Below are positions 11,172 to 49,953 of a stretch of DNA of 64,000 nt, one piece after another. Origin of the DNA: Parabacteroides sp. Lineage in GTDB: Bacteria; Bacteroidota; Bacteroidia; Bacteroidales; Tannerellaceae. Every line of letters starts with the position of its first letter. Positions within the stretch are counted from its first letter, which is position 1. Made by a program: the position numbers and the translations under genes. Under the pieces are notes generated by a model, which worked only from the letters and a program-made list of their open reading frames with translations, had not been told where the DNA came from and did not search any database. The DNA lies in assembly GCA_034091205.1 (NCBI GenBank), contig JAXDRC010000015.1, forward strand, positions 15,167-79,166, given 5' to 3'.

Positions 11172-11336
11172 TGGATCAACTTTCAGAAAACGAGTTGACA
11201 AGAAAACAAGTTGACAAGGATTATCAGATAATTGTCAGACAATTAAATGCGAATAAATAGTTATCTTACCTTGTCAACTTGTCCCTGTAACCATGTCAAC
11301 TTTTAAGTTGAGCAACTTGCGAAACCCAAGTTAAAT
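11172..11336. repeat. TTGACAAG-family hairpin element (complete copy with right terminal box)
   Basis: CGAGTTGACAAGAAAACAAGTTGACAAGG, then a 49-nt loop, then CCTTGTCAACTTGTCCCTGTAACCATGTCAACTT, then the box TAAGTTGAGCAACTTGCGAAACCCAAGTT. Confidence 0.85.
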
Positions 11337-11451
11337 ATGTTATAATCCACTGATTATTTGTTTCCCATGTTCTGCAAAAATAGCGATAAGAAACGGACTA
11401 TTAAATTATTTAACAAAAAACTTTTACGGTTTTGCTTTTTAGTGGCTCAAT

Positions 11452-11620
11452 TAATATAATTCAAGTTTCGCAAGCTCAACTTATAGATAACAAGTTAACA
11501 AAGGGACAATTCAATAAGATTTTTAGATGACAAATGTAAAGTTACAGTTGTTTGTGACCTTGTCAACTTGTATCTGAAGCCTAGTATACTTTTAAGTTTA
11601 GTTATTTGCTAAACTTAAAT
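11452..11620. repeat. TTGACAAG-family element, degenerate copy with left terminal box
   Basis: Left box AATATAATTCAAGTTTCGCAAGCTCAACTTA is the reverse complement of the 11304 box. Arms are ACAAGTTAACAAAGGGAC and CCTTGTCAACTTGTATCTGAAGCC. A perfect 10-bp hairpin TTAAGTTTAG/CTAAACTTAA lies at 11592-11618. Confidence 0.7.
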
Positions 11621-11630
11621 ATATTATCTT

Positions 11631-11712
11631 CGCCACATCTGTGGCGAAATCAGGTCACAGATGTGATTTAATTAAGTCACAAATGTGGCGAAATCAAACC
11701 ACAGTTGTGGCG
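11631..11712. repeat. array of 4 palindromes phased at exactly 22 bp (CCACA-N3-TGTGG type)
   Basis: The four units are CGCCACATCTGTGGCGAAATCAG, GTCACAGATGTGATTTAATTAA, GTCACAAATGTGGCGAAATCAAA and CCACAGTTGTGGCGAAG. Palindrome centres fall at about 11638.5, 11660.5, 11682.5 and 11704.5. Confidence 0.85.
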
Positions 11713-11737
11713 AAGTTAGTTAAATTACAGATATTCC

Positions 11738-11800
11738 GATCTTGTTTACTTGTATCTGAAACCTTGTTTACTTTAAGTTGAGCAACTTGCGATACTTAAA
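11738..11800. repeat. TTGACAAG-family partial element (right arm plus right terminal box)
   Basis: TCTTGTTTACTTGTATCTGAAACCTTGTTTACTTTAAGTTGAGCAACTTGCGATACTT is a direct repeat of 11556-11600. Confidence 0.7.
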
Positions 11801-11802
11801 GA

Positions 11803-11950
11803 ATATAATTCAAGTTTCATAAACGAAACTTTCAGTTAACGAGTTGACAAGAAAACTAATTGACAAGTTTTTTCAGATGATTAAAAGCGAAGAAACAGCT
11901 ATTCCACCTTGTCAACTTGTCTCTGAAAACTTGTCAACTTATCACCAATT
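11803..11950. repeat. TTGACAAG-family hairpin element (complete copy with left box)
   Basis: AATATAATTCAAGTTTCATAAACGAAACTTTCAG, then ACGAGTTGACAAGAAAACTAATTGACAAG, a loop, then CCTTGTCAACTTGTCTCTGAAAACTTGTCAACTT. Confidence 0.85.
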
Positions 11951-11951
11951 C

Positions 11952-11982
11952 CTTGTCAATACAATTTTTTTAATTAGCTTTG
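11952..11982 (+). promoter_or_regulatory. candidate Bacteroidetes-type promoter for the GH3 gene
   Basis: Exact TAnnTTTG box TAGCTTTG at 11975-11982. A TTG at 11953-11955, 19 nt upstream, is supplied by a trailing CCTTGTCAAT repeat word. Confidence 0.4.
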
Positions 11983-12076
11983 TACCAAACAAATATATCT
12001 ATTTTCCGAGAGTAGCTTAGTATATAATATACAATAAGCCTTATTGTAGAAACAACAAGAATTAAAGTCTAATAAT

Positions 12077-14683: not shown

Positions 14684-14701
14684 ACTAAATGATTCACCAG
14701 A

Positions 14702-14814
14702 ATCAACTTTTAGTTGACAAGAAAATAAGTTGACAAGAAATATCAAATAATTAAGCACAAAGTATTAACTATTTGACCTTGTCAACTTGTTTTATTAAGC
14801 CTGTAAACTTTTAG
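14702..14814. repeat. TTGACAAG-family hairpin element
   Basis: ATCAACTTTTAGTTGACAAGAAAATAAGTTGACAAG, a loop, then CCTTGTCAACTTGTTTTATTAAGCCTGTAAACTTTTAG. It aligns along its length with 11175-11305. Confidence 0.85.
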
Positions 14815-14887
14815 GATAAAAAATAAACTCTTGCAGTAAGACTGATATATATTCGCAACATTGTCATATTTATTTTACACAGGAACA

Positions 14888-15163
14888 CTACATATCAAAA
14901 AGCCTTTCCAACTCCTTCTCTGTAACTTTCAGGACACTTCCATGTCTGATTCCTTCAGGCATTTTCAGCTTATCTGAGATTTCATTCCAGTTTTTCAGGT
15001 CAGAAGATTCAATTACGCCAAAGCAGCCTTCTGTGTATTTGTCGAAATAGACATAATATTTAGAACCTAAATCAAGCAAGGTTGGTCCTTCTGCCCAATA
15101 AATCTGGTTGCCGGAACAAGCGGCTAATAAAAATATTTGCAATAGAATTATTATGTGTTTCAT
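14888..15163 (-). CDS. 91-aa lipoprotein consisting of a signal peptide fused to a GH43-like C-terminal blade (possible gene remnant)
   Basis: MKHIIILLQIFLLAACSGNQ is followed directly by IYWAEGPTLLDLGSKYYVYFD...SSDLKNWNE...GIRHGSVLKV, which resembles the last part of a GH43 propeller. Start trimmed to 15163 so that it does not run into the repeat. Confidence 0.45.
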   Translation of the reverse strand: MKHIIILLQIFLLAACSGNQIYWAEGPTLLDLGSKYYVYFDKYTEGCFGVIESSDLKNWNEISDKLKMPEGIRHGSVLKVTEKELERLFDM

Positions 15164-15191
15164 AGATTTATGCGTATGATTATGTTTAGAG

Positions 15192-15306
15192 GACAAGGGA
15201 ACGAGTTGATACTAGTTGACAAGTTGACAAGGCTTCAGGTAAAAAGAAATTTCTACTTGACTTCTTGACTACTTAACTTCTTGTTCCTAAAACCTTGTCA
15301 ACTTAA
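15192..15306. repeat. TTGACAAG-family hairpin element
   Basis: GGACAAGGGAACGAGTTGATACTAGTTGACAAGTTGACAAGG, a loop, then CTACTTGACTTCTTGACTACTTAACTTCTTGTTCCTAAAACCTTGTCAACTT. Confidence 0.85.
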
Positions 15307-15320
15307 AGTTATCTTCCATC

Positions 15321-17171: not shown

Positions 17172-17259
17172 GATATTTAAGACTAAAGTTTACACTTATA
17201 ATTGACTATAAAAATATATCAATCATATTATACATGCAATATATACATAAAATAAAAAA

Positions 17260-17292
17260 GAGGCCGCCCCCAATAAAATTTGAGACGACCTC
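17260..17292 (-). terminator. candidate intrinsic terminator after lutC
   Basis: The minus-strand RNA is GAGGUCG..(19 nt)..CGGCCUC followed by UUUUUUAUUUU. The stem is 7 bp including one G-U pair. Confidence 0.45.
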
Positions 17293-17320
17293 GATTTATC
17301 AAGTTCTTTATTTAATCCAA

Positions 17321-20117: not shown

Positions 20118-20196
20118 AACGAGAAACGGAATATTACAGAACTTCAAGGGAATACATAAATAAATTTTTTCACCTTGCCGACTTGTCTATGAAGCC
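20118..20196. repeat. decayed TTGACAAG-family element
   Basis: AACGAGAAACGGAATATTACAGAACTTCAAGGG, a loop, then CACCTTGCCGACTTGTCTATGAAGCC. Compare CCTTGTCAACTTGTATCTGAAGCC at 11556. Confidence 0.5.
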
Positions 20197-20273
20197 TTAT
20201 GTCAGAGATAAAAAAAAGAGACAGCCTCTTTCCTTTCAGAGACAGCCTCTTTTCCTCAATGTATTATGCTATT

Positions 20274-23817: not shown

Positions 23818-23949
23818 AGTTGACAAGGCCTCAGAGACGAGTTGACAAGGAGTTTTTTAATTGAAAATTGAAAGTTGAAAATTATAATACTCTGTGACTC
23901 TGTGTTTAAAAGCCTCGTCAACTTGTCAACTCGTTCCCTTGTCAACTAC
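23818..23949. repeat. TTGACAAG-family hairpin element with composite loop
   Basis: AGTTGACAAGGCCTCAGAGACGAGTTGACAAGG (words 22 nt apart). The loop holds a TTGAAAA stutter and a CTCTGTGACTCTGTGTTT half-element. The right arm is GCCTCGTCAACTTGTCAACTCGTTCCCTTGTCAACT. Confidence 0.85.
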
Positions 23950-24979: not shown

Positions 24980-26083
24980 CTACAAATTATATCCCCATTC
25001 CTTCAATGCCATACCCCAGTTTTCTTCAACTGCCTTAACTGTCGCATCTTCATATTTGTACTGATTCTTCTTGTAGCCTTTTTTCTTTCCCAAATAAGCT
25101 TCGATACTAGCTTTTGATTCATTGAAGTTTGGCAAATCAAGAGTTCTGTATATTTCCTCAGTCATTCCAAATGCATCTTTTTCGAAATCTTCGAATTTCA
25201 CTTCGATAAGATTGCCTTCAGGAATAAGATGTTTCTCTTCTTCATACTTATAATACAACCTTTTATAAACCTCAACGAAATTCTTTATCAGTTCTTCGTC
25301 TGAAATATTCTGAAGCATCAAAGGCTTTATTGTGTTTGTGAAGAAACTGCGTGTACTTTCATACACTGTATATGGATTACGCTTCAAATAAATAAACTTG
25401 GCATTAGGGAACATTTCCACAAGAGTCTTTACTCGTCCGGTATGTGGAGGATTCTTACTCAAATATTGTGTTCCGCCAGTATTGTAAAGCGAAACTTTCA
25501 CAAGACGCAGGAATGTGTCTTTCCAAATCTGTCTTTCACTTTCTGAAATATCATTAAATAGCAAATACTTATCACAATATTCCAACATTCTCTGAGGGAA
25601 GAACCAGAAATTATAATAAGTGTATGGCATCATATTTGACAAAGCGAATTCTTCTTCCTGAGGCAAATCCACTTTCAGTTCCATATTGTCGGTCGGACGA
25701 TGGTCCGGCATCAGAAAAGACATATTCTTCTTGAAGAATCCCTGTCCCCACAACATAAGATTCGGGAACACTGTCTGATATGTTGTTGTGTATCCGAAAT
25801 GCTTGTCGCAGGCAAAGACATTATGCACAAAAGTAGTACCGCTTCTCCAATGTCCGAGCACAAACAGAGGATCCATTTCCAACGGTTTGTCGGCAATCTT
25901 CTTATAGCGGCTATCCTCAAGTGGCTTTAACAGACTCAATAGACGGCAAACACCTTTTGTCAGTCTGTATTTGCCTTTATAACCGTCCTCTATATTCTGA
26001 TTTGCAGTAACCTTCTTGAAAGTATCCCAGTCTGCACCAACCAGAGTATTTATCGGAAGTTTGTCAAATTCAATAAGTCCCAT
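24980..26083 (-). CDS. PAPS-dependent sulfotransferase family protein
   Basis: The 5'-PSB loop is LGHWRSGTTFVHN and the 3'-PB-like motif is YLKRNPYTVYES. It lies directly downstream of cysDN and cysC. Confidence 0.8.
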   Translation of the reverse strand: MGLIEFDKLPINTLVGADWDTFKKVTANQNIEDGYKGKYRLTKGVCRLLSLLKPLEDSRYKKIADKPLEMDPLFVLGHWRSGTTFVHNVFACDKHFGYTTTYQTVFPNLMLWGQGFFKKNMSFLMPDHRPTDNMELKVDLPQEEEFALSNMMPYTYYNFWFFPQRMLEYCDKYLLFNDISESERQIWKDTFLRLVKVSLYNTGGTQYLSKNPPHTGRVKTLVEMFPNAKFIYLKRNPYTVYESTRSFFTNTIKPLMLQNISDEELIKNFVEVYKRLYYKYEEEKHLIPEGNLIEVKFEDFEKDAFGMTEEIYRTLDLPNFNESKASIEAYLGKKKGYKKNQYKYEDATVKAVEENWGMALKEWGYNL

Positions 26084-26115
26084 TATATATTAATTTAGTT
26101 CTATTACTTTAATAA

Positions 26116-26205
26116 AGTTGACAAGGCATCAGAGACAAGTTGACAAGACAAAATAACAGTAACTCATTCCCTTGTCAACTTGTTCCCTCGTCAACTCGTC
26201 AACTG
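26116..26205. repeat. TTGACAAG-family hairpin element (between cysN and sulfotransferase gene)
   Basis: AGTTGACAAGGCATCAGAGACAAGTTGACAAG (22-nt spacing), a 21-nt loop, then CCCTTGTCAACTTGTTCCCTCGTCAACTCGTCAACT. Confidence 0.85.
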
Positions 26206-26211
26206 ACTATA

Positions 26212-27642
26212 TTACTTAATTACTCTCAGTTCAACTCCGTTTTTCTCAATTTCCTTACAAACACGTTCAACGGCATCATAATGTTCTGGAGAAATGCCGA
26301 GTTCAGGCAAATTCAATGTTATTACACCATTGTCGTTCAACTGCTGATTTGCCTCAACCTTGTCGATTATCATACCAACGGCAGAGGTATTGTTTGTAAT
26401 TGGGTCTATAAGGATAAACGCGCCGGTCTGCTTGTTCTTCTTATAAGGGTCGAAGAATAATTCTTTTCCGGTTGAGAAAACAACACGGCCGATTTCGTTC
26501 AACACAAGGTGATCAACTTCTGACTGTTCCATTGTGTTCACATTCACCTTATATTTTATTCCGTCGATTCTTGCACGAGTTGTATTTGTTGTATGCTTGA
26601 TATAGAACTGCTTGCTGACATCCATCGGTTCTTCGTCCATCCACACAAGCATTGCCTCAAAGTTTCTGCCTTCATATGGTTTGTTGTCCGGATGAACAAG
26701 CATCTCACCTCTTGAGATGTCTATTTCATCTTCCAAAGTAAGAGTAACAGACATTGGAGGGAAAGCTTCTTCGATTTCTCCTTCATAAGTTACAATGCTC
26801 TTGACCTTTGATGTCTTTCCTGAAGGCAAAGCCATGACAGCATCACCCTTTCTTACAACGCCGCTTGCCACTTTGCCGCAGAAACCTCTGAAATCCAAAT
26901 TCGGACGTAAAACGAACTGAACAGGATAACGGAAATCGTCATAATTGCGGTCCTTGTCGATTGGAACATTTTCAAGATAATCAAGCAATGCCGGTCCTTC
27001 ATACCAAGGAGTGCGGTCACTCTTCTCAACAACATTGTCGCCATCGAGTGCAGACAAAGGAATGCAAGTTACATCGTCGATAGCAAGAGGGGCTACAAAC
27101 GACATATAATCTGCAACAATCTTATCAAACACTTCCTTATTGAAGTCAACCAAGTCCATCTTGTTCACTGCAAGGACAACGTGGCGTATTCCAAGCAATG
27201 ACACCAGATAAGTATGGCGACGTGTCTGAGTAATCACTCCCGTACGTGCGTCAACAAGAATAATGGCAAGGTTTGCTGTTGAACCGCCGGTAATCATATT
27301 TCTGGTATATTGCTCATGACCCGGAGTGTCAGCGATGATAAACTTTCTGTTGTTTGTGCTGAAATATCTGTAGGCAACATCAATTGTAATACCTTGCTCA
27401 CGTTCCGCCTTCAATCCGTCAAGAAGCAAAGCATAGTCAATATGGTCGCCGGCATTTCCCATTCTTTTACTGTCGCGTTCCAAAGCGTCCAGCTGGTCTT
27501 CATACAATTTCTTGCTGTCAAAAAGCAGTCGGCCAATCAATGTTGACTTTCCGTCATCCACAGAACCGGCTGTAAGCAAGCGCAACAAATCCTTCTGTTC
27601 GTCTTTATCCAAAAAGGCTTTTATATCTAGATTACTTTCCAT
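26212..27642 (-). CDS. cysN: sulfate adenylyltransferase subunit 1 (GTPase)
   Basis: G1 motif [16 protein letters not shown]3 motif DTPGHEQY and G4 motif NKMD. 476 aa with no APS kinase fusion. Confidence 0.9.
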
Positions 27643-27655
27643 GATTTACAATTTA

Positions 27656-28564
27656 TTAAAAATAACCCTCACGTTTTTTCTGTTCCATACTTGCATCCTG
27701 GTCGAAATCGATAACACGAGTTGTTCTCTCGCTCTTTGTTGTTGTCATCATTTCTTCTACAATCTTTTCAATTGTATCAGCATCACTTTCAACTGCACCG
27801 GTCAGCGGCCAGCAGCCTAATGTTCTGAAACGGACTTTTCGCATCTGGATTTTATCTCTGTATTGTTCAGGCAAACGGTCATCATCTGCCATAATCAGAT
27901 TACCGTCAATTTCAACAATCGGTCTTTCTTTTGCAAAATACAACGGAACAATTGGAATGTTCTCCAATCTTATATATTGCCAGATATCCAATTCTGTCCA
28001 GTTTGACAACGGGAAAACACGGATACTCTCGCCTTTGTGAACACGTGCATTGTATATATCCCACAATTCCGGACGCTGGTTCTTTGGGTCCCACTGATGG
28101 AATTTGTCCCGGAATGAGAAAATTCTTTCCTTGGCACGACTCTTCTCTTCATCACGGCGAGCACCGCCAAAAGCCGCGTCAAATTTATATTTGTCTAATG
28201 CCTGGAGCAAAGCCTGGGTTTTCATCAAATCGGTATGTACCTTGCTTCCGTGGGTGAAAGGTCCGACACCGGCATTGAAGGCTTCCATATTTGATTCAAC
28301 AATCAAGTTCCAGCCAAATTCTTTAGCGTAATTATCACGGAACTCTATCATTTCCTTGAATTTCCATTTTGAATCAATATGCATCAAAGGGAAAGGAACT
28401 TTACCCGGGGCAAAAGCCTTTTCTGCAAGGCGCACCATCACAGATGAATCTTTTCCAATTGAATAAAGCATAACCGGATTCTCAAACTCCGCTGCTACTT
28501 CACGTATGATGTGAATTGATTCAGCCTCAAGTTCCTGTAAATGGCTTAATTTATAATCAGACAT
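27656..28564 (-). CDS. cysD: sulfate adenylyltransferase subunit 2
   Basis: PP-loop-like [10 protein letters not shown]. 302 aa, immediately upstream of cysN. Confidence 0.9.
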
Positions 28565-28599
28565 ATTTTTGAGTTTTTAAGTTTTTAAGTTTTTGAGTT
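28565..28599. repeat. 8-nt tandem stutter (GTTTTTRA x4) in the cysD 5' leader
   Basis: TTTTTGAGTTTTTAAGTTTTTAAGTTTTTGAGTTT lies immediately upstream of the cysD start codon (on the minus strand, AAACTYAAAAAC repeats). Confidence 0.8.
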
Positions 28600-28602
28600 T
28601 AT

Positions 28603-28726
28603 AGTTGACAAGAGGACTAGTTGACGAGTTGACAAGGTTTAATACCAATCATTTCACACTTAATTATCAACAAATTCTTGTCAACTTGTTCCCTTGTCAA
28701 CTTGTTCCCTTGTTTCCTTGTCAACC
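28603..28726. repeat. TTGACAAG-family hairpin element (between cysC and cysD; last word overlaps the cysC stop)
   Basis: AGTTGACAAGAGGACTAGTTGACGAGTTGACAAGG, a loop, then TTCTTGTCAACTTGTTCCCTTGTCAACTTGTTCCCTTGTTTCCTTGTCAACC. Confidence 0.85.
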
Positions 28727-29317
28727 AAGAATCTTTTCCAAAAGCAATTTAACGGATTCCTCAACAGACAATTTTGATGTATCCAATGTCAAATCCGGAT
28801 TCTCCGGAGCTTCAAACGGAGCTGACACACCGGTAAAATCCTTTATTTCTCCTTTACGGGCACGTGCATATAAACCTTTCACGTCACGACGCTCACATTC
28901 TTCAATCGGCGTGCTTACATACACTTCCATAAAGCTGTCTTTACCGATAATACCGGCTGCCATCTTTCGCAAATCATTATTAGGACTTATGAATGCTGCA
29001 AGAGTTATAACTCCGGTTTCAACAAACAACTTTCCTACTTCTGCTATACGGCGGATATTTTCCACTCTGTCCTCAGGTGAAAAACCAAGATTATTATTTA
29101 TTCCGCTTCTTATATTATCTCCGTCGAGAATACGGCACAACAAACCACGTTTGTGCAACTCACGCTCCAAAGCTATTGCAATGGTACTTTTTCCTGAACC
29201 GCTCAGGCCTGTAAACCAAACCATCAACCCACGTTGTCCAAGCAATTCTTCCTTATCCTTTCTTGTCATCATCTTGTCGAAGATTGGATAAACATTATGA
29301 GTTTTTGTTTCCTCCAT
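28721..29317 (-). CDS. cysC: adenylyl-sulfate (APS) kinase
   Basis: P-loop FTGLSGSGKSTIA. 198 aa. Confidence 0.9.
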   Translation of the reverse strand: MEETKTHNVYPIFDKMMTRKDKEELLGQRGLMVWFTGLSGSGKSTIAIALERELHKRGLLCRILDGDNIRSGINNNLGFSPEDRVENIRRIAEVGKLFVETGVITLAAFISPNNDLRKMAAGIIGKDSFMEVYVSTPIEECERRDVKGLYARARKGEIKDFTGVSAPFEAPENPDLTLDTSKLSVEESVKLLLEKILG

Positions 29318-29395
29318 TATATTTTTGTTTTATGTTTTTCTTTATTCAAGTCATTATTTTCGGCAAGCTTAACTTCACTTGCAAACAGCAATCCC

Positions 29396-30949
29396 TTAGA
29401 ATTCCCATATCAAAGGAATCAGGAATATTGAAATCAGGAATGTAATAAAGTTCAAAGGCAATCCGATTTTAACGAAATCCGTGAACTTGTATCCACCGAT
29501 ACCTTGAACTATCAGATTTGTCTGATAACCAATTGGCGTACTAAAACTGGCAGAAGCTGCCATACATATAACAACAAAGAAAGGAGTTGGTTCAACACCC
29601 AACTGATTTGCTACTGAAAGAGCTATCGGGAAACTTAGCGCAGCAGCTGCATTATTGGTTATAAGTTCGGTGAAAATATTAGTTATAATAAATATTACAG
29701 CCAAAAGAGCATAAGGTCCAAGTCGGTCTGTCATACCTATTATATAATGTGCTATCATATCAGCTACGCCCGAATTAACCATTGCTTTACTGATAGCAAA
29801 AGCACAGGCAATAGTTATCAGAATATCCCACGAAATATATTTCGTATATTTCTTAGGTGGGAAAATCTTTGTCCATGCCATAATTATCGTAGTAATACAA
29901 ACGAAAAAGAACATATCCAGTTTCAAATCCGGGAATGTTTCTTTCGTTATTGGCAATTCACCTATAGTTGCTCCAAGAATCATGAAAATCAACAATCCCA
30001 AAGCCAACATACGTTTCTTTGGAGAAACTTCTTCCTGTGAATCTTTTCCGTTGGCAAGCATAAGGAAGACGCTGGATTCACCCCATGTCGGAATGAACGT
30101 ATCATCTGCCCATAAGACCAAAGTGTCACCTTCATTCAAACGGACTTTGTCCAGATTGTGAGTAAACCTTCTTCCTCCGCTTATTACTTCTTTAACAATA
30201 GCACCATAATGACGAGTAAAATTAAATTCGCCCAACGTCTTGTTCAAACCCGGGAAACGTGCTCCAAGCACGGCTTCGACTTTATGCAGATTCCCAAGTT
30301 CTTCTTCTGATGAATCATCAGAGTCTGTTTTACTGGATGAATCAGGAAGAAGTTTGTTTGAGAATATAAAAAGGTAAATCAGACCGAACAATGCAACGAT
30401 AAAACCGACTTTGCCCAATTCAAACATAGTAAAGCCTTCATATCCTGCATCCAATATCATTCCGTGAACCACCAGATTTGTTGACGTGCCAATCAAAGTA
30501 CACATACCGCCCAGGATAGTCACATATGATAAAGGTATAAGAAATTTTGTTGACGGAAGTTTAACATGTTCAGCCCATCTTTTTATAATAGGGGCAAATA
30601 TTACAACAACAGGAGTGTTGTTGAGAAATGCAGAAATAAATGCTATTGAGGGAAGCATCCGTAACTGTGCCTGGAAAATAGTGGTACTTTTCCTTGGTAA
30701 TAATTTCTTTATAAGCTTGCCCAACGCCCCGCTTTGCCTGACACCTTCGCTTACCAGAAATAGCATTCCAACGGTTATCATGCCCTTATTACTAAAACCT
30801 TCCAACATTTCCTTAGGGGTTAGTATTCCGGCACAAAGAAACAATACTGAGACCGTCAGCAGCACCATTCCCGGACGCATCTGATCCCAGATAAGGGCAG
30901 CTATCATCCCGGCTAGCACTGCCAATACAAAAAATATTTCAAAACTCAT
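29396..30949 (-). CDS. SLC13/DASS-family anion (sulfate-type) permease with central TrkA-C domains
   Basis: 517 aa of polytopic membrane protein. The central soluble region (LHKVEAVLGARFPGLNKTLGEF...LNEGDTLVLW) is typical of RCK-C inserts. Confidence 0.8.
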   Translation of the reverse strand: MSFEIFFVLAVLAGMIAALIWDQMRPGMVLLTVSVLFLCAGILTPKEMLEGFSNKGMITVGMLFLVSEGVRQSGALGKLIKKLLPRKSTTIFQAQLRMLPSIAFISAFLNNTPVVVIFAPIIKRWAEHVKLPSTKFLIPLSYVTILGGMCTLIGTSTNLVVHGMILDAGYEGFTMFELGKVGFIVALFGLIYLFIFSNKLLPDSSSKTDSDDSSEEELGNLHKVEAVLGARFPGLNKTLGEFNFTRHYGAIVKEVISGGRRFTHNLDKVRLNEGDTLVLWADDTFIPTWGESSVFLMLANGKDSQEEVSPKKRMLALGLLIFMILGATIGELPITKETFPDLKLDMFFFVCITTIIMAWTKIFPPKKYTKYISWDILITIACAFAISKAMVNSGVADMIAHYIIGMTDRLGPYALLAVIFIITNIFTELITNNAAAALSFPIALSVANQLGVEPTPFFVVICMAASASFSTPIGYQTNLIVQGIGGYKFTDFVKIGLPLNFITFLISIFLIPLIWEF

Positions 30950-31060
30950 GCCAATATCTTATTTCTTTACAGATTTAGCCGCAAATATACGAAGATATTG
31001 GATGAGTTTTGGAAAATCGCACTCTGATTTAAGCACAATAATACAAATAGACCAATATTG

Positions 31061-31885
31061 TCACGAAACGGAAGATACAGATTTTACGACAAACCAAGGA
31101 TTCTTCAGGTCTTCCTTGTTATACTTTATCGGAGTTTTTTCATCTATATGATATACCTCACATCCTGCGCCACGGGCAATTGCATGTCCGGCAGCCGTGT
31201 CCCACTCCATAGTTGGGGCAAATCGCGGATATATATCAGCCGAGCCTTCTGCAACAAGACAAATCTTCAAACTGCTGCCGCTGCTTATCAATGTTACCGG
31301 CAAGCCTTTTTTACGAAGATTATCAATATATCTTGTTGTTTCTTCTGTCTGGTGGGAACGGGAAGCAACAACAACTATTCCCTGGTGTGCTGCTGCCAAT
31401 GGTAATTTAGAAGCTCTTTCTTTTATTTCGTCATACGAAGGCTGAGTCATGCAATCCACATCAGAAAGTTTATATGCTCCCATATTATCTGATGAGAAAT
31501 AAAGCTCTTTTCTTACTGGAACGTAGATAACTCCAAGCACCGGGACATGATTCACCACCAATGCTATATTCACAGTAAACTCACCGTTTTTCTTTATAAA
31601 TTCCTTTGTCCCGTCAAGCGGATCAACAACCCAAAGAGTGTTCCAATCCTTTCTTTCACTATAAGGTACTTGCAATTCTTCCTCACTAAGCACTGGTATT
31701 GAAGTAGTAGACAGAATTCTGACAATAACTTCATTCGAAGCTTTGTCTGCCAATGTCAAAGGAGAGTTATCAGCCTTCATTTCAACACCAAAATCAGAAT
31801 CCGGATTATTGTAAATATCCAAAATAGACTTTCCGGCATCCAATGCCGCACGTATTGCGATATAAAGATAATTCTTGTATTCCAT
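31061..31885 (-). CDS. cysQ: 3'(2'),5'-bisphosphate nucleotidase (PAP phosphatase)
   Basis: Inositol-monophosphatase-fold motifs LWVVDPLDGTKEF and WDTAAGHAI. Confidence 0.85.
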   Translation of the reverse strand: MEYKNYLYIAIRAALDAGKSILDIYNNPDSDFGVEMKADNSPLTLADKASNEVIVRILSTTSIPVLSEEELQVPYSERKDWNTLWVVDPLDGTKEFIKKNGEFTVNIALVVNHVPVLGVIYVPVRKELYFSSDNMGAYKLSDVDCMTQPSYDEIKERASKLPLAAAHQGIVVVASRSHQTEETTRYIDNLRKKGLPVTLISSGSSLKICLVAEGSADIYPRFAPTMEWDTAAGHAIARGAGCEVYHIDEKTPIKYNKEDLKNPWFVVKSVSSVS

Positions 31886-31899
31886 AACTGTAAAATTTA

Positions 31900-32004
31900 G
31901 GGGACGAGGATAAACAGATACAAGGTTACAGATACAAGGCTACAGTATATATAAATCATCTGTTTACTTGTCAACTCGTTAACTTGCCCCTGCCTTCTCG
32001 TCAC
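31900..32004. repeat. variant stuttered hairpin (GATACAAGG / CTTGTCAACT words)
   Basis: GGGGACGAGGATAAACAGATACAAGGTTACAGATACAAGGCTACAG, a loop, then CTGTTTACTTGTCAACTCGTTAACTTGCCCCTGCCTTCTCGTCAC. Confidence 0.6.
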
Positions 32005-32072
32005 AAATCATTGATTTGCTAAAGTAGCAAATTGTCATGAACAATACAAAATTTTAATGTTACTTAAGTTTT

Positions 32073-32272
32073 CAAGTTGACAAGTTGACGAGTCTTCAAG
32101 GGATGTTTCAAAACTAATTTAAACACAGAGGCAGAGAACACAGAGATTTTATTTATTCTCAATATATTACCTCCGAGACTTCGTGCCTCTGTGATTGAAT
32201 TTTTATGTTTTACAAAACCCTACTTAACTCCTTAACTACTTGACTACTTGACTCCTTAACTACTTAACTCCT
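32073..32272. repeat. composite element: TTGACAAG-type arms enclosing a complete CACAGAG-type element
   Basis: The left arm is CAAGTTGACAAGTTGACGAG (32073-32092). The nested element occupies 32102-32220. The right arm is TACTTAACTCCTTAACTACTTGACTACTTGACTCCTTAACTACTTAACTCC (32221-32272) and overlaps the last codons of the adenosyltransferase gene. Confidence 0.75.
32102..32220. repeat. CACAGAG-type nested hairpin element (copy 2)
   Basis: GATGTTTCAAAACTAATTTAAACACAGAGGCAGAGAACACAGAGATTTT...GCCTCTGTGATTGAATTTTTATGTTTTACAAAACC. The first 29 nt differ from 4171-4199 at a single position. Confidence 0.8.
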
Positions 32273-32835
32273 TTCCTCTTATACGCAAACAAATTCCAAC
32301 GTTCTTCCTGCCAATTCTGCTTTTGCATTTCAAGCTTTGCCATTACAAAAAACAAATCCGACAATCGGTTTACATATTTCAATATATCTTCAGGCACAGC
32401 ATCTTTTCTGTTCAAAGTCCACAATCTCCTCTCGGCTCTTCGGGCGACTGTCCGTGCCAATTGCAATTGTGCAGACACAACAGTTCCTCCCGGAAGGATA
32501 AAAAAGCCGAGTTCCTCAACTTCCGAACTGAACTCGTCCAACTTATACTCAATGTCTGTAACAATATTATCATCCAGCGTATTCGGATTCTTATGGCGTA
32601 TTGCCGATGGTGTGGCAACAATGCTCATCACAACCATCAGATTACGCTGGATGTCATACAAAAGCCCATTCCATTCATGCTCCGGTTCCAAGAGGGAACG
32701 GACCACTCCAATCAAAGCATTAAGCTCGTCCAAACAGCCATTTGCCTCGATTCTTATATCATCTTTAGGAACTCTTTCTCCTCCGTGTATCCCGGTCGTT
32801 CCTTTGTCTCCAGAGCGTGTGTATATGCGTTTCAT
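32260..32835 (-). CDS. PduO-type ATP:cob(I)alamin adenosyltransferase
   Basis: N-terminus MKRIYTRSGDKGTTGIHGGERVPKDD. 191 aa. Confidence 0.85.
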   Translation of the reverse strand: MKRIYTRSGDKGTTGIHGGERVPKDDIRIEANGCLDELNALIGVVRSLLEPEHEWNGLLYDIQRNLMVVMSIVATPSAIRHKNPNTLDDNIVTDIEYKLDEFSSEVEELGFFILPGGTVVSAQLQLARTVARRAERRLWTLNRKDAVPEDILKYVNRLSDLFFVMAKLEMQKQNWQEERWNLFAYKRKGVK

Positions 32836-32916: not shown

Positions 32917-32992
32917 CACCTAGGTGAGCCAATCAATCCACCTAGGTGGGTAAATCAACTCACCTGGGTGGGTAAATCAGCTCACCTGGGTG
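32917..32992. repeat. array of 4 palindromes phased at exactly 22 bp (CACCTAGGTG / CACCTGGGTG)
   Basis: Palindromes lie at 32917-26, 32939-48, 32961-70 and 32983-92. The unit is CACCTRGGTGGGTAAATCARCT, and the array is flanked by the ATCGAT-containing inverted repeat AATCGAT..ATCGATT. Confidence 0.9.
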
Positions 32993-33591: not shown

Positions 33592-33825
33592 ATGGCAAAA
33601 ATAAAAGGAGCAGTTGTTGTGAATACTGAACGCTGCAAAGGTTGCAACTTATGTGTGGTTGCATGTCCCGCCAATGTTTTGGAACTCCACCCGAGAGAGG
33701 TCAACAACAAAGGCTATCACTATGTGTATATGAAGAATCCCGACAATTGTATCGGATGTGCAAGTTGCGGACTGGTATGTCCGGACGGATGTTTGACCAT
33801 TTACAAGAAAAAAATAGAGCTATAA
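33592..33825 (+). CDS. 4Fe-4S dicluster ferredoxin-type subunit (delta) of 2-oxoacid:ferredoxin oxidoreductase
   Basis: Two cluster motifs, CKGCNLCVVACP and CIGCASCGLVCP. 77 aa, first gene of the operon. Confidence 0.8.
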   Translation: MAKIKGAVVVNTERCKGCNLCVVACPANVLELHPREVNNKGYHYVYMKNPDNCIGCASCGLVCPDGCLTIYKKKIEL

Positions 33826-33879
33826 CCAAAGCTTGTTTCTTCAAGCTTTTCATCTTATTTCAATAAAAAAGCAATAATT

Positions 33880-35161: not shown

Positions 35162-35196
35162 AAGTTGAAAGGCTTCATACACAAGTTGACAAGGTT
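35162..35196. repeat. TTGACAAG-family half element (left-arm words only) inside the operon
   Basis: AAGTTGAAAGGCTTCATACACAAGTTGACAAGGT; the words are 21 nt apart. Confidence 0.6.
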
Positions 35197-41600: not shown

Positions 41601-41676
41601 ACGAGTTGACAAGGTAAAAAATAACGGCTTTAAACAAAGCCTGTTTAGAGACCTTGCCAACTCGTTGTTTTTTCTT
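41601..41676 (+). terminator. intrinsic terminator built from one TTGACAAG-family word pair
   Basis: ACGAGTTGACAAGGT (41601-41615) pairs with ACCTTGCCAACTCGT (41651-41665), followed by TGTTTTTTCTTT. An inner hairpin GGCTTT/AAAGCC is present. Confidence 0.7.
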
Positions 41677-43700: not shown

Positions 43701-43710
43701 TATAAACCTT

Positions 43711-45627: not shown

Positions 45628-45679
45628 CTAAATAACAATATGGCATAATATTAGACAAAACTTAATAAACTAACGATAT

Positions 45680-46207: not shown

Positions 46208-47073
46208 CAGGTGCAATTATCGGCGATATTGTTGGTTCTGTATATGAATTCAACAATACTAAAGATTACGACTTCAAACTATTTTCAGAAGATAGTGATA
46301 TAACAGATGATACAATAATGACCATTGCTGTTGCAGAATGGGCATTAAAATGTAAACAGAAAGCAGATTTTGACCTTAAATCATTAGAGGAAATAATGGT
46401 TTCTACTGCTGAAAGATATCCAAGTCCGAAAGGCGACTATGGAATGGCATTCAGCACCTGGCTGTTTTATCCTCAAGGTCTCGTAGATTACCGTACTGGT
46501 GAACTTGCCGGAAAGCGTTGTCCTTACAATTCATGGGGAAACGGCTCAGCTATGAGAGTATCTTCAATCGGATGGCTTTTCGACTCAATAGAAGAGACTG
46601 AGCGAGTGGCAGCAATTTCTGCATCAATCACCCACAATCATCCAGAAGGAATAAAAGGAGCTGAGGCTGTAGCAGCAGCAATATTTCTTGCCAGAAACGG
46701 AGCAAGCAAGAAAGAAATAAAAGAATATATCGAATCAAAATATGGATATAACCTGGATTCAACTTGGGAATACCTGAACAAAACTTATTCATGGGATTCA
46801 AGTTGCCAAGGAACTGTTCCGCAAGCTATAATATGTTTTCTTGACAGCTCGGACTTTGAAAGTGCCATAAGAATGTCCGTCTCAATCGGTGGTGACAGCG
46901 ACACTTTGGCTTGTATAACCGGTTCGATTGCCGAAGCTTATTATAAAGATATTCCAAACAGTATGATTTCCGTAACTTATAGAATCATGCCAGATGAGTT
47001 CAAGGCTGTTCTGAAACAGTTGGCAGAAAACAGCAATTATGCGGAAGTCTATAGCAAGTATTTCAGTAAATAA
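46204..47073 (+). CDS. ADP-ribosylglycohydrolase family protein
   Basis: MTGAIIGDIVGSVYE, DDTIMTIAVAEW and GGDSDTLACITGSIAEAYY. The start overlaps the Nudix stop (ATGA). Confidence 0.85.
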   Translation: MTGAIIGDIVGSVYEFNNTKDYDFKLFSEDSDITDDTIMTIAVAEWALKCKQKADFDLKSLEEIMVSTAERYPSPKGDYGMAFSTWLFYPQGLVDYRTGELAGKRCPYNSWGNGSAMRVSSIGWLFDSIEETERVAAISASITHNHPEGIKGAEAVAAAIFLARNGASKKEIKEYIESKYGYNLDSTWEYLNKTYSWDSSCQGTVPQAIICFLDSSDFESAIRMSVSIGGDSDTLACITGSIAEAYYKDIPNSMISVTYRIMPDEFKAVLKQLAENSNYAEVYSKYFSK

Positions 47074-47087
47074 TACAGCAAAATAAA

Positions 47088-47131
47088 AGTAGACAAGGAT
47101 TCATAATCAGCAATCCTTGTCTACTTTTTTT
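47088..47131. terminator. bidirectional intrinsic terminator
   Basis: AGTAGACAAGGAT (47088-47100) pairs with ATCCTTGTCTACT (47113-47125), with an A-run before and TTTTTTT after. The stem word GTAGACAAGG is one mismatch from the family word GTTGACAAGG. Confidence 0.8.
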
Positions 47132-47149
47132 ACAGAAGCCGAAGAAGCT

Positions 47150-48571
47150 TTATTTTAGTTTAACGACAAAAGTAGTCAGCGATTTTGAAGGAGCAGTAAA
47201 GCTTAATGATCCATTATCTATTCTCATATTCGGAAGAGATTTACAATCTTCTTTTTCACTTGTACGCCACACAGAAACGTCAGACGAAGCAGCTGCTTTT
47301 ATTGCCAAATCTACATTCTCTCCTTTATCAGATTTGTTCAGATAAACTATAACAAGTTCTTTTCCGGATGGAGAAACTGCTGAAAGAGTCTGAGCATTGT
47401 CTGTATCCACAAATATATATCCTTGCTTTATAAAACCTGTAACCTGCTTACGGACATAATAATTCTTCACTTTATGAAACTTCTCTGTTTCGAAGTTTCC
47501 ACGCAGCAAGCACCATTCATTATTGTTTTCTTCCATTATCTGCCAGTCAAGCCAAGCTTGCGGACGCATAATCCTCAAATCATTGAACATTTTCTGTGTC
47601 AATCCAAGATTACTTTCCAAATCAACACCTTCAGAAGGTCCGGTTTCTGATTGCCAGAAAGGTTTACCGGCACGTTCTACAAGTGCGCGGACTGCTTCGC
47701 GCTCCTCATTTGTTCCACTGTAAGTATGAGTATTTAATTGACCTACTTTTTCCCATATATCTCCTGCCTTCTCATAATGCGACTGAACTGTGAGAAAGTG
47801 ATTCAAGTTAGTTTCATCCGATGCGGAAATCACCGTATTCATTCCACTTGATTTTAGCATAGGATAAAGAATACGAATTATCTTGATTTGAGTTTCCGGT
47901 TCGAAATGGCAACCTTCCTGAGTTCCCTCAGCATACCAGTAATTTGAATAAGGTTCGTTGAATGGCTCCAATGTCTTGAATTCTATTCCATATTCATCTT
48001 TGAAATGCAGACACACATCTATCAGATACTTACAGAATGATTCATAATATTCCGGCTTAAGATTATCCTTGAGAGGATCTTTATGTCCTCCGGCACAACC
48101 GCTTACAGTCATCCAATAAGGTGCAGAGTTGGAGAAAGCCTCAAACACAGCATCAGGTCTTTTCTCTTTGATTTTTTGGAGTAATATTCTTTGTCCACGG
48201 TCGGCATTCCAATCATAAGGACTACTCTCCGTAGCCTTGAATCCTTCCATTTCTGCTCTCTTGCCCTTGCCTTTCACCATATGACCGCCAAGATGAGAAG
48301 GATCGTCGCCTCCACCGATATTATATCTGAATATATTCATATTCAGTTCGTCTTCTGAAACAAGCATGTCAACAATGGAATCCACCTTTGATTCTTCCCA
48401 TTTTCCGACTTGTGCAGCCCACCAGCAAAGCGAACTTCCCCAGCCTTCCAGTTTCTGATATTTCACTGAGGGATTTACTTCAACCTTCACAGATTTCCCC
48501 TCATTGTTGTTTGCCGATACAAATCCGGTAAAGGCAAAACATAGTGCTAAAGATAGTAATATGGTTATCAT
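47150..48571 (-). CDS. glycoside hydrolase family 30 enzyme
   Basis: EGWGSSLCWWA is present, the clan GH-A acid/base is LEPFNEP and the nucleophile region is FWQSETGP. A signal peptide is present. Confidence 0.8.
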   Translation of the reverse strand: MITILLSLALCFAFTGFVSANNNEGKSVKVEVNPSVKYQKLEGWGSSLCWWAAQVGKWEESKVDSIVDMLVSEDELNMNIFRYNIGGGDDPSHLGGHMVKGKGKRAEMEGFKATESSPYDWNADRGQRILLQKIKEKRPDAVFEAFSNSAPYWMTVSGCAGGHKDPLKDNLKPEYYESFCKYLIDVCLHFKDEYGIEFKTLEPFNEPYSNYWYAEGTQEGCHFEPETQIKIIRILYPMLKSSGMNTVISASDETNLNHFLTVQSHYEKAGDIWEKVGQLNTHTYSGTNEEREAVRALVERAGKPFWQSETGPSEGVDLESNLGLTQKMFNDLRIMRPQAWLDWQIMEENNNEWCLLRGNFETEKFHKVKNYYVRKQVTGFIKQGYIFVDTDNAQTLSAVSPSGKELVIVYLNKSDKGENVDLAIKAAASSDVSVWRTSEKEDCKSLPNMRIDNGSLSFTAPSKSLTTFVVKLK

Positions 48572-48634
48572 AATATAAATATTGGTATTTTGTAAATATA
48601 GTGATTTTATTTAAGATTTGCAAGTTCTGCATCC

Positions 48635-48660
48635 AGTTGACAAGGGAACAAGTTGACAAG
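48635..48660. repeat. TTGACAAG-family half element
   Basis: AGTTGACAAGGGAACAAGTTGACAAG; the words are 16 nt apart and no right arm is seen. Confidence 0.65.
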
Positions 48661-48677
48661 ACTTAATTATCCGAATA

Positions 48678-49406
48678 TCATTTTTCAACTAGTTTTGCCA
48701 AATAATCATAATGCTCACCTTTCTTCACCAGCTCAGCCTTGAAACCGTATTGCGACGCATAGAGAGAAAGAGTATCGAAATCAATATACAGCCAGTCGAA
48801 TGATTCTCCTTTTATATTCTTATAGCGCATGGAAAAATCCACTTCTCCATAATAGCCGTCTGTACTGTCTATCTCGAAATTGCCATCCTCATCCTCAAAC
48901 AGATATTTCAAATCGCTTGAATCCAACAACACACATCCTCCAGGATTCAGCAAAGTTTTGATGCGCTTGAAAAACTCTCCAATGTTCTGCAAACGTCCGA
49001 TAATTCCGGAACCGTTCATAAGCATCAGAATTGTGTCGAAACGTGAAGTAAACGACAAATCAAACAAATTTATATTTGCAGCATCAACACCTCTTTCACG
49101 CATAACAGCCACTGAAAGTGGAGAAATATCTATAGCAAAAGACTCCTTTCCCATTTCCTTCAAAGCAATGGAATGACATCCGCTTCCGGCTCCGACATCC
49201 AGAATGCTGCCTTTCGCTATCTGCAAAGCCTCCTGCTCAAGAGGTGACATTTCGTTATATGTTCTGAACAAATCTTTTACAGGTATTTCGTCTTCGTCAA
49301 ACTGAGATGAAAAAACGGAAAGTCTGCCTGCTTTCCCATTCTTGAAATAATCACGGATGGCTGCACCCATCGGGTCTTTATCTTCTGTCAGCACTCTATA
49401 GTTCAT
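48678..49406 (-). CDS. class I SAM-dependent methyltransferase
   Basis: Motif I ILDVGAGSGCHS. 242 aa. Confidence 0.8.
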   Translation of the reverse strand: MNYRVLTEDKDPMGAAIRDYFKNGKAGRLSVFSSQFDEDEIPVKDLFRTYNEMSPLEQEALQIAKGSILDVGAGSGCHSIALKEMGKESFAIDISPLSVAVMRERGVDAANINLFDLSFTSRFDTILMLMNGSGIIGRLQNIGEFFKRIKTLLNPGGCVLLDSSDLKYLFEDEDGNFEIDSTDGYYGEVDFSMRYKNIKGESFDWLYIDFDTLSLYASQYGFKAELVKKGEHYDYLAKLVEK

Positions 49407-49431
49407 AAGTATTTATATATTGTAATTACAA

Positions 49432-49893
49432 TTAATAATCCTCATCAATCCCAAACCTTAAAGGAATAACAACCTTTATTGCTTCCAAATCAAAATATGG
49501 CGTAGGCGGATAAATCAAGTCCAGATAACGAAGGTCAAGTGCACAAGGCACTTCTTCAATCCTTACTTTAACAACTCCACCCGACTTGAATTTAAGCTTC
49601 TTTGCAGCAGCCTCAGATAAATCAATTATCCTGCTACGCTGATGAGGTCCTCGGTCTGTCACACAGACAACGACACTCAACATATTCTCAAGATTTGTAA
49701 CTCTCAGAAAAGTTCCAAAAGGATAAGTGCGGTGTGCAGCTGTAAATTCATATCTGTTGTGAATACGCCCACTTGCCGTCATCTTCCCGTGAAAACGATG
49801 ATGATAATACGATGCAAAACCCTCATCCTGGGCATACATTATATTTGACAGGACAAAAAGAAGGAAAAACACCAGAGATGACGATTTTATCAT
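49432..49893 (-). CDS. rlpA: RlpA-family (DPBB domain) septal ring lytic transglycosylase-like protein
   Basis: A signal peptide is followed by GFASYYHHRFHGKMTASG and RVTNLENMLSVVVCVTDRGP. Confidence 0.75.
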   Translation of the reverse strand: MIKSSSLVFFLLFVLSNIMYAQDEGFASYYHHRFHGKMTASGRIHNRYEFTAAHRTYPFGTFLRVTNLENMLSVVVCVTDRGPHQRSRIIDLSEAAAKKLKFKSGGVVKVRIEEVPCALDLRYLDLIYPPTPYFDLEAIKVVIPLRFGIDEDY

Positions 49894-49920
49894 ATTTCAA
49901 TTATTATAAGGTTAATAATA

Positions 49921-49953
49921 AAGTTGACAAGGATTCAGATAATAGTTGACAAT
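49921..49953. repeat. TTGACAAG-family half element
   Basis: AAGTTGACAAGGATTCAGATAATAGTTGACAAT; the words are 22 nt apart. Confidence 0.65.

Follow-up and report, generated by a model that had tools for sequence, protein, structure and literature searches.

Stuttered-arm hairpin repeats between the genes of a gut Parabacteroides: a probable superfamily of small non-autonomous mobile elements in Bacteroidales

What are the hairpin-shaped repeats that lie between the genes of a gut Parabacteroides, and how did they come to be there? The question is raised by a stretch of 64,000 nucleotides from Parabacteroides sp. (GenBank assembly GCA_034091205.1, contig JAXDRC010000015.1, positions 15,167 to 79,166 of the forward strand; this whole stretch is called the window in what follows), in which hairpin repeats built from the word GTTGACAAGG are present in many copies between genes. 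The answer that we consider probable, and still well short of certain, is that they represent a superfamily of small, non-coding and non-autonomous mobile palindromic repeats, similar to MITEs (miniature transposable elements with inverted repeats) and repetitive extragenic palindromes (REPs), which behaves like selfish DNA and has settled in the intergenic DNA of some Bacteroidales lineages.

Is there a family at all? Counting both strands of the window and allowing at most one mismatch, we find AGTTGACAAGG 39 times, against 1.24 occurrences expected, and none of 100 dinucleotide-preserving shuffles reached 39. The window was divided into coding and intergenic sequence by means of a hand-curated set of 48 long open reading frames (ORFs), and 37 of the 39 words are located in the intergenic DNA, which makes up 15% of the window. 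This corresponds to 3.8 words per kb of intergenic sequence against 0.037 per kb of coding sequence, a bias of about 100-fold, and 0.125 is what a first-order Markov model built on the intergenic sequence would give where those 3.8 per kb are observed. The two words found in coding sequence are a chance match (46801) and one that overlaps the stop codon of cysC (28716). The initial annotation of this DNA, made from its letters alone, had proposed one family of stuttered-arm hairpin elements with a strong intergenic preference, and had named composition-matched shuffles and coding sequence as the yardsticks; measured by both, the word is far commoner in intergenic DNA and the family is borne out. 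The same bias appears in 864 kb (i.e., the window and 106 related loci, these being 8-kb pieces with crude ORF calls), in which just 12% of 580 words lie inside crude ORFs, although these cover 84% of the sequence. In total, 19 loci are present in the window, with elements of 60-216 nt that hold no ORFs, at a density of roughly one locus per 2-4 kb, and they occupy a large share of the intergenic DNA. The loci listed in the initial annotation were all found again, including the half elements at 35162, 48635 and 49921, which are indeed single arms, whereas three others (47088-47125, about 52131-52317 and about 29352-29390) had been overlooked.

The elements are laid out as a 5' arm that is an array of 8-nt units, a loop of 20-65 nt and a 3' arm that is the complementary array. 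The units are degenerate around a constant ACRAG, the commonest being GTTGACAA and others being GTTGACGA, GGGAACAA, GGAGACAA, GTTAACAA and GGTAACAA, with CTTGTCAA, CTCGTCAA and CTTGTTCC as complementary units on the opposite arm. Over the 864 kb, the distance from one ACRAG to the next near words is 8 nt in 583 cases, with minor peaks at 14-16 and 22 nt, and that from one GTTGAC to the next is 8 nt (115 cases), 15-16 nt (111) or 22-24 nt (51), so the word spacing of 8, 16 and 22 nt first noticed in the window extends to the larger sample. At all two-armed loci the forward word or words come first and the reverse complement second, the opposite order being essentially never seen. Furthermore, three consecutive GTTGACAA units place a TGA in all three reading frames, because 8 mod 3 is 2.

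Strong hairpins (z about -2.7 to -6) are predicted at eight loci, namely 11172-11336, 11803-11950, 14702-14814, 15192-15306 (counted on its transcribed strand), 23818-23949, 26116-26205, 28603-28726 and 41601-41665. Other loci have weak or decayed folds and yet are homologous (11452-11620, z -1.5; 20118-20196, z -0.1; 31900-32004, z -1.6). When 15 copies are aligned, 4 of the 39 predicted pairs are changed on both sides with pairing kept (e.g., GTTAAC<->GGGAAC); compensatory changes of the arms, on which the initial annotation had staked its claim, do therefore exist. The complementarity of arms that slip could come from selection for the hairpin, from copying of one arm onto the other, or from inheritance within sub-lineages.

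How, then, did the copies multiply? The initial annotation had taken the loops to be unconserved and had seen, in conserved arms around such loops, an argument against spread by copying. The first point does not hold in general and the second is not supported: within subfamilies, loops and ends are conserved and boundaries are sharp. Three copies of the window are 67-73% identical over 99 nt, loop included, and in a subfamily of the Bacteroides cellulosilyticus / B. intestinalis group there are 16 near-identical copies with an almost invariant loop (GGTTCCATGCGGCATAGAAGCATTGCGCAGCCCC), sharp ends and unrelated flanks. At one site of B. intestinalis (L106; L numbers are our labels for loci of other genomes) an element of about 95 nt is present, where the orthologous site of L004, 74% identical, has a gap of 16 nt. 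Since loops and ends are conserved within subfamilies and elements have been gained at operon junctions and inside genes, copy-and-insert spread is the best explanation.

Gains inside genes come from related genomes. There, the Pfam domains of a phosphoglycerate mutase (L028, L068), a CusA/AcrB-family pump (L092) and glycoside hydrolases (GHs) of families GH95 (L102) and GH97 (L087) contain complete hairpins in frame, and the Pfam-matched stretches of these element-bearing genes are 27-54 residues longer than the profiles. In an alignment with CusA, the extra peptide of the L092 pump (…ALVDKVQVDKLTRPCGTEASSTRQLVNSST…) falls in a loop. Among orthologs of the cofactor-independent mutase (ApgM) that are 82-99% identical, the linker after FRPLLVKP varies from 7 to about 80 residues, and some linkers are element-encoded VDK…LVN repeats; no clean empty site was obtained in this ApgM linker, which is hypervariable and not alignable.

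Gains at operon junctions are seen in the cys genes. Two relatives (L118 and L119, CysD about 95% identical) share with the window the order transporter, cysC, cysD, cysN, sulfotransferase and PCMD-domain gene. The successive junction gaps are 23, 0, 9, 3, 47 and 84 nt in L118 and 78, 156, 13, 128, 36 and 222 nt in the window, where elements fill the large ones. A single fused frame of 506-511 residues holds both cysC and cysD in the relatives (L118 713-2248, L119 5001-6521), while in the window they are separate and cysC ends at a TGA within the first word of the element (…CTT GGT TGA). L118 has hairpins in a dialect of the same design, made of ATTGACAA / TTGTCAAT units (4829-4856 and 5837-5919). 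Locus L023 of a close strain, an uncultured Parabacteroides genome bin, is colinear with window 25372-32835 at 91-96% identity, and differs from it by point changes in spacers and loops and by arm indels of exactly 16 and 8 nt; another locus pair differs by 24 nt.

Signs of insertion are found in one subfamily. About one tenth of the elements have an outer terminal inverted repeat of 23 nt (consensus TTCAAGTTTCGCAAGCTCAACTT), and 39 ends match TTCAAGTTTCGCAAGCTCAACTTA, including those of window 11460-11619, 11809-11960 and 52131-52317. In this subfamily, terminal inverted repeats YTYAAGTTTCGCAAGC…GCTTGCGAAACTTRAR are flanked by AT-rich direct repeats of 7 bp, which are perfect in four cases (TTAAAGT, TATTTTA, AAAACAA and TATATTA) and match in 6 of 7 positions in TATAGTG/TATAGTA. 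A duplication of at least 6/7 is present in 5 of 15 copies with terminal repeats, against 4% of mismatched-flank controls. The small flanking hairpins (TCAACTT..AAGTTGA) that had been noticed earlier are real and belong to these terminal repeats, and the earlier analogy with MITEs proves apt for this subfamily, given such inverted ends and the target-site duplications of 7 bp. At 52131-52317 these ends surround arms made of other words, and ends and arms are therefore separable modules.

Locus by locus, the window contains the following:

11172-11336: full element whose left end is degenerate; two forward words (11193, 11209) precede the loop, two reverse words (11269, 11291) come after it, and the right terminal repeat AAGTTGAGCAACTTGCGAAAC lies at about 11305-11331 (DNA fold z -6.1, alignment)
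11460-11619: copy of the inverted-repeat (MITE) subfamily; left end TTCAAGTTTCGCAAGCTCAACTT intact (11460-11482), right end at 11594-11619, arms decayed (z -1.5)
11738-11800: right-half fragment; two decayed reverse words and right terminal repeat at 11775-11800 (96% identity in one repeat family)
11809-11960: full element that has TTCAAGTTTCATAAACGAAACTT as its left end, two forward words (11842, 11859) and three reverse words (11907, 11929, 11950) (z -2.7); reference copy of the three-copy family that shares its loop
14702-14814: element with the convergent GH3 gene on one side and a truncated ORF on the other; words at 14712, 14728 and 14777 (RNA folds z -5.1 and -5.6)
15192-15306: element flanked by minus-strand genes that run in the same direction; three words (15214, 15222, 15293) and a loop that contains a AGTCAAGT-type octamer array (minus strand z -5.9)
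20118-20207: decayed remnant; right-arm-like stretch CACCTTGCCGACTTGTCTATGAAGCC only, no hairpin (65% identity; z -0.1)
23818-23949: element separating the PCMD-domain gene from ligA; two words (23818, 23840) and, farther on, three more (23913, 23921, 23937) (z -5.1 and -5.5); the sequence of relatives differs at this junction
26116-26205: element between cysN and the sulfotransferase gene (z -4.7 and -5.0); present in L023, while L118 has a 3-nt gap
28565-28726: module that separates the cistrons cysC and cysD (z -3.6 and -4.2); on the minus strand it reads, in order, the cysC stop TGA (28721-28723) in the first word, a purine-rich octamer arm, a loop and a pyrimidine-rich arm, with a G-free A-rich octamer tract (28565-28602) that reaches the cysD ATG
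29352-29390: short remnant between the transporter gene and cysC; at the same site L023 has a decayed element of 106 nt with a TTCAAGTTTCACTAACTCAACTTT end
31900-32004: variant element ACAGATACAAGG … CTTGTCAACTCGTTAACTTGCCCC (z -1.6); its right arm is shorter by exactly 16 nt in L023
32073-32272: composite long hairpin; left arm AAGTTGACAAGTTGACGAG, right arm a CTACTTGA/CTCCTTAA octamer array overlapping the cobalamin adenosyltransferase stop codon; L023 has one additional 8-nt unit
35162-35196, plus strand: single arm (half element) between korA-like and korB-like genes
41601-41675, plus strand: minimal, terminator-like hairpin GAGTTGACAAGG … CCTTGCCAACTC (z -5.9), located downstream of a GDSL lipase gene and with a T-run after it
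47088-47135: the variant word GTAGACAAGGATT … AATCCTTGTCTAC forms a perfect hairpin (z -9.1) with a T-run behind it, the genes on either side being convergent; 47088-47125 carries the GTAGACAAGG variant, paired as GTAGACAAGG…CCTTGTCTAC
48635-48661, plus strand: single arm, two forward words 16 nt apart; 97% complementary to 28673-28702
49921-49953, plus strand: single arm, two forward words 22 nt apart
52131-52317: copy of the inverted-repeat subfamily with the same terminal repeats and with internal arms of GGAGTTA / TAACTCC words; it lies outside the range of the initial annotation

Where else are these elements found? A scan of one genome per species with the pattern AGTTGACAAGG-N30-60-CCTTGTCAACT matched at least 106 stretches. 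Among the matches listed, most come from about ten genomes, i.e., the distribution is high-copy and patchy. They include two uncultured Parabacteroides, B. intestinalis, B. cellulosilyticus, B. caecigallinarum, several uncultured Bacteroides, and Phocaeicola intestinalis and other Phocaeicola, together with single matches in Prevotella, Pedobacter and a Chitinophagaceae bin and a few probable chance hairpins in other phyla. In a collection of 2.9 million viral contigs there was one match, and a plasmid collection gave none to two MITE copies. No element matched an Rfam family at the gathering threshold or with E <= 1, which agrees with the initial impression that the repeat was unfamiliar, and literature searches for the word and for REP or MITE descriptions in Bacteroides retrieved no description of this family. 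A survey published in 2024 reports 81,380 unnamed MITE candidates of Bacteroidota, among which some of these elements may be included.

Several results weigh against a mobile origin and have to be set beside the above. For the majority of elements, those without terminal repeats, mobility is inferred from their distribution and not from insertion signatures: 204 flanks of such copies score like control intergenic DNA with a weight matrix of the ends (p = 0.73), and no target-site duplication of 2-7 bp at any offset was found in 116 copies. Outside the home stretch of 64 kb, related genomes supply the in-gene insertions and the clean duplications, none of which comes from the window. All four orthologous elements are common to the window and L023, with no recent movement seen in this lineage, nor was insertion polymorphism within a species seen in the 64 kb of the home genome and the 8-kb pieces of other genomes. 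Neither the window nor the related loci (about 860 kb) yielded a gene for a transposase, RayT (REP-associated tyrosine transposase) or Ssn, and no autonomous element with these ends was found in the plasmid collection. Finally, a word of 10-11 nt that is kept across three genera while the spacers drift could point to a host factor that reads it. As for the copies that seem to have no ends, the impression gained by eye at 23818-23949 that they hold decayed terminal repeats was discarded, their flank scores being equal to those of controls. The absence of both terminal repeats and duplications fits the pattern left by single-strand mechanisms of the HUH/RayT type, and also fits element ends that have been misplaced.

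Which enzyme could be the partner? The search extended to ORFs with the HUH and Y (Y1) motifs and to GIY-YIG ORFs, neither of which was found in the approximately 860 kb. The 30 window proteins scanned against Pfam contained no mobile-element genes, all of them being housekeeping proteins (e.g., ligA, dapA, lutABC, cysDNC, kor and recJ). An ORF of 102 residues at 14888-15196 (minus strand), located between two elements, has a lipoprotein signal and a C-terminal glycoside hydrolase-like fragment (GH43-like by eye) and no Pfam match, and is probably a gene remnant; it was considered as a partner gene and rejected for being a truncated glycosidase-like lipoprotein. Using an approximate, consensus-style query sequence, about 8,000 Bacteroidota proteins labelled RayT were retrieved. 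In three of the five RayT loci examined, CCCCTGACAGGGTT…AACCCTGTCAGGGG palindromes stand on both flanks, which have in common with the family word only the core TGACA(A)GG / CC(T)TGTCA; this palindrome is absent from the Bacteroidales loci. A link between the elements and RayT-type transposases is therefore no more than a lead. Elsewhere in this set, at L111 3150-3430, a RayT gene of Ancylomarina adjoins a CRISPR array with cas1 and cas2, and not REP hairpins, and the RayT of L114 lies inside a cas3/cas4 cluster.

The course of events may be summarised as follows. Elements are gained at new sites and survive where they do little harm, i.e., just after stop codons, between cistrons at about 20 nt or more from the next start codon, in divergent regions and, when in frame, in tolerant loops of proteins. 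After insertion, the arms slip by whole 8-nt units with their complementarity kept. Copies with terminal repeats may have been moved by a DDE-type transposase that makes 7-bp duplications, and the majority without them probably by way of a single-stranded hairpin intermediate, through an enzyme (possibly HUH/RayT-like) that would read the GTTGAC…GTCAAC feet. Once co-transcribed, the hairpins would probably behave as operon-internal RNA structures that stabilise, attenuate or process transcripts, and the elements may also supply stop codons; judged from the sequence, regulatory side effects are plausible.

Could this regulation be instead the reason for their existence? Under this alternative, the elements would be cis-regulatory RNA modules selected by the host, in which an intercistronic or 3'-end hairpin stabilises, attenuates or processes the polycistronic mRNA, the stop-rich 5' arm halts ribosomes, and the G-free A-rich tract serves as an unstructured leader for initiation at the next cistron. 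Bacteroidota largely lack Shine-Dalgarno sites. The arrangement around genes is suggestive: of 157 stop codons, 35 are located inside an exact word or no more than 5 nt away from one, while none of 141 start codons is so close and 128 of these stand at 21 nt or more. At 73 co-directional junctions the order is stop, purine arm, loop, pyrimidine arm, A-rich tract and ATG, and many co-directional junctions consist of one such module only, with a G-free A-rich tract of AAAACTYA units before the ATG; 19 of 30 A-rich tracts are within 60 nt upstream of a start codon. Strong folding, compensatory arm changes and the positions kept between two strains point in the same direction. However, this bias in position fits purifying selection on random insertions equally well as later adaptation of the elements into operon-internal modules. 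Furthermore, relatives run the same cys operon without elements, the taxonomy is patchy, some copies have terminal repeats and duplications, and others lie in divergent regions, as half elements or in frame inside genes. Elements occupy 105 co-directional, 26 convergent and 18 divergent junctions (294, 63 and 64 among background gaps of at least 40 nt), and the initial annotation was right in placing copies in a divergent region (11180-12076) and inside operons (cys and kor). It was also right that they are not merely terminators: a T-run follows 11 of 122 hairpins (9%), and an intrinsic (Rho-independent) terminator was rejected for most copies, 41601-41675 and 47088-47135 being the only ones in the window that qualify. 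Selection on the RNA should, through G·U pairs, leave the sense strand the more stable of the two. In a strand test of 74 co-directional copies, 35 favour folding of the sense strand and 39 of the antisense strand (p = 0.97), and this lack of a sense excess argues against a strand-specific RNA as their primary nature. On balance, RNA modules selected as such seem to us rather unlikely.

A third possibility, which we regard as improbable, is that nothing moved at all and that the elements grew where they are, through replication slippage of 8-nt units and through template switching in the hairpin, by which the arms would become complementary, similar words arising repeatedly. The indels of exactly 8, 16 and 24 nt and the dominant spacing of 8 nt are what such growth would produce, and it would also account for the dialects of certain lineages (ATTGACAA in L118, GGAGTTA in 52131-52317) and for the absence of duplications at copies without terminal repeats. 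Slippage does take place, though in elements that already exist at the site. Local growth leaves unexplained the copies at unrelated loci that are nearly identical, have the same loop and end sharply, the terminal repeats with their 7-bp duplications, the fixed polarity, and the presence of whole hairpins in coding domains and at operon junctions of 0-3 nt. Very improbable, finally, are arrays of sites on double-stranded DNA at which a protein conserved in Bacteroidales would bind, be it a nucleoid protein, a global regulator or the receptor of an uptake sequence, with an incidental inversion, since, in spite of the same word of 10-11 nt in Bacteroides, Phocaeicola and Parabacteroides, the regular spacing of 8, 16 and 22 nt and the half elements with two direct words (48635 and 49921), the forward-then-complement order is strict, the arms co-vary, 8 bp is not a helical repeat, few genomes hold most of the matches listed, and we know of no candidate protein that binds the word.

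How do these elements relate to those already known? A comparable element from the same bacterial order is BrickBuilt (MITE464) of Porphyromonas gingivalis, which has the terminal repeat GAGACCTTTGCA (IS5-like) and direct repeats of 23 nt (PMC4596501). Both are small, non-coding and intergenic, with terminal repeats and duplications in some copies, an internal array of short repeats of variable number, and many degenerate or partial copies. Unlike BrickBuilt, the present family has YTYAAGTTTCGCAAGC ends and a 7-bp duplication, its 8-nt units form two inverted hairpin arrays, and most of its copies are devoid of terminal repeats; membership was rejected because both the terminal repeat and the type of internal repeat differ. 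Small size, absence of coding capacity, multiple copies and sharp ends in unrelated flanks, as expected of a MITE, are found nonetheless, and one subfamily adds the terminal repeats and the duplication to its small size and multiple copies.

The likeness to REPs, bacterial interspersed mosaic elements (BIMEs) and REP doublets (REPINs) lies in the high-copy extragenic palindromes at gene ends and inside operons, for which in-frame insertions into genes have also been reported, and in the imperfect pairing and lack of duplications, the latter true of the copies without terminal repeats. RAYT subclasses 2.4 and 2.6 are present in Bacteroidetes, the former with "double-foot" REPs (GTAG…CTAC) in Bacteroidetes and Cyanobacteria, and one REP of Aequorivita is GTAGAGACAAGG-CATG-CCTTGTCTCTAC (PMC6006769). 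Such a double foot resembles GTTG-ACAAGG…CCTTGT-CAAC, and the Aequorivita REP can be set beside GTAGACAAGG…CCTTGTCTAC of window 47088-47125, but here a GTTG foot (GTTGAC) replaces GT[AG]G, GTAG being found only at 47088-47125, and the arms are tandem word arrays with long loops and not a hairpin of 20-40 nt. Judged by its foot, the family was thus rejected as REP or REPIN, the conserved GT[AG]G tetranucleotide being absent. A second class of abundant hairpins, the Ssn-associated repeats (NTS/SRM, CGTC-tagged), is paired with a small enzyme that cuts single-stranded DNA and whose gene they flank, and its motif is HGTCWY followed by a hairpin of 20-50 nt (PMC11893778, PMC3733652). This class was also discarded, as TGTCAA fails the Y position of HGTCWY and the DNA examined has no GIY-YIG ORF.

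Two further systems are alike in behaviour. The palindromic elements of Rickettsia, of about 100-150 bp, occur between genes and in frame in protein-coding genes, to which they add a peptide segment; the host is unrelated, the sequence presumably so too, and their arms have no 8-nt units, the likeness being one of behaviour only. The Correia elements (NEMIS) of Neisseria are MITEs of 100-155 bp with 26-bp terminal repeats, a TA duplication and an IHF site, which form long co-transcribed hairpins between cistrons and act as RNA-processing, terminator or promoter modules; they resemble the family as hairpin MITEs between cistrons, with no known similarity in sequence. Integron attC sites (consensus RYYYAAC … GTTRRRY) were rejected, given that the order is the opposite on both strands (GTTGAC first, GTCAAC last) and the neighbours are core housekeeping genes. 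Each feature has therefore a precedent, be it the short-repeat array (BrickBuilt), the in-frame insertion (Rickettsia palindromic elements and some REPs) or the intercistronic hairpin (Correia elements and REPs), and what is not described in the literature found is their combination, i.e., inverted 8-nt arrays, fixed polarity, optional terminal repeats, dialects and a word that extends across three genera. We therefore regard the elements as a variant of a familiar kind and not as biology of a new kind.

A bolder proposal, which we put forward tentatively and to which we grant only a small chance, comes in two parts, either or both of which might apply. On the one hand, the hairpins without terminal repeats would be a third "tag" class beside GTAG/RAYT and CGTC/Ssn, with GTTGAC…GTCAAC feet and 8-nt arms, moved by a Bacteroidales enzyme acting on single-stranded DNA with which the dialects would co-evolve. 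On the other hand, elements would have been domesticated as intercistronic modules (three-frame stops, hairpin and G-free A-rich leader) that organise translation re-initiation and transcript stability within the operons of bacteria in which Shine-Dalgarno sites are largely missing.

Why should these elements be of concern? According to the scan they are common in widely studied gut species, including B. cellulosilyticus and B. intestinalis. They alter gene boundaries, as in the cysC stop codon supplied by an element in place of the cysC-cysD fusion of the relatives, and genuine enzymes and pumps of related genomes have acquired additional peptides from them. Placed into operons, strong hairpins probably alter the stability and coupling of transcripts, and the slippage by 8 nt provides length markers at strain level, while gene callers and assemblers will be misled by such repeats. 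A partner enzyme, should there be one, would be new and would act on hairpin DNA with sequence specificity, in a phylum poorly served by genetic tools.

Some other features were noticed along the way. In L119, an A-rich GAATTAAG / AATTGAGA tract, a further dialect of the design, stands ahead of the cysN start codon (6522-6554). In the window, three units containing AAAACTAAGGCTTAG, about 35-40 nt apart, lie at 51990-52100, just upstream of the 52131-52317 copy, and a Bacteroid-trp tryptophan leader RNA (RF01692, 58.5 bits) is present at 51727-51889, upstream of the gene cluster that starts at 52332. A small ORF with ferredoxin-type 4Fe-4S cysteine motifs, outside the curated ORF set, is found at about 33640-33865, in a region of 1044 nt counted as intergenic upstream of the korA-like gene. 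Lastly, arrays of 10-bp CAC-N4-GTG palindromes exactly 22 nt apart are located at 11634-11709 and 32939-32992. The first consists of CACAGATGTG / CCACAnnTGTGGCGAA units in the divergent region between the GH2 and GH3 genes, on which the only weak Rfam match, to osmY (E = 0.58), falls, and the second of CACCTAGGTG / CACCTGGGTG units upstream of the cobalamin adenosyltransferase gene; both look like operator arrays for a dimeric regulator.

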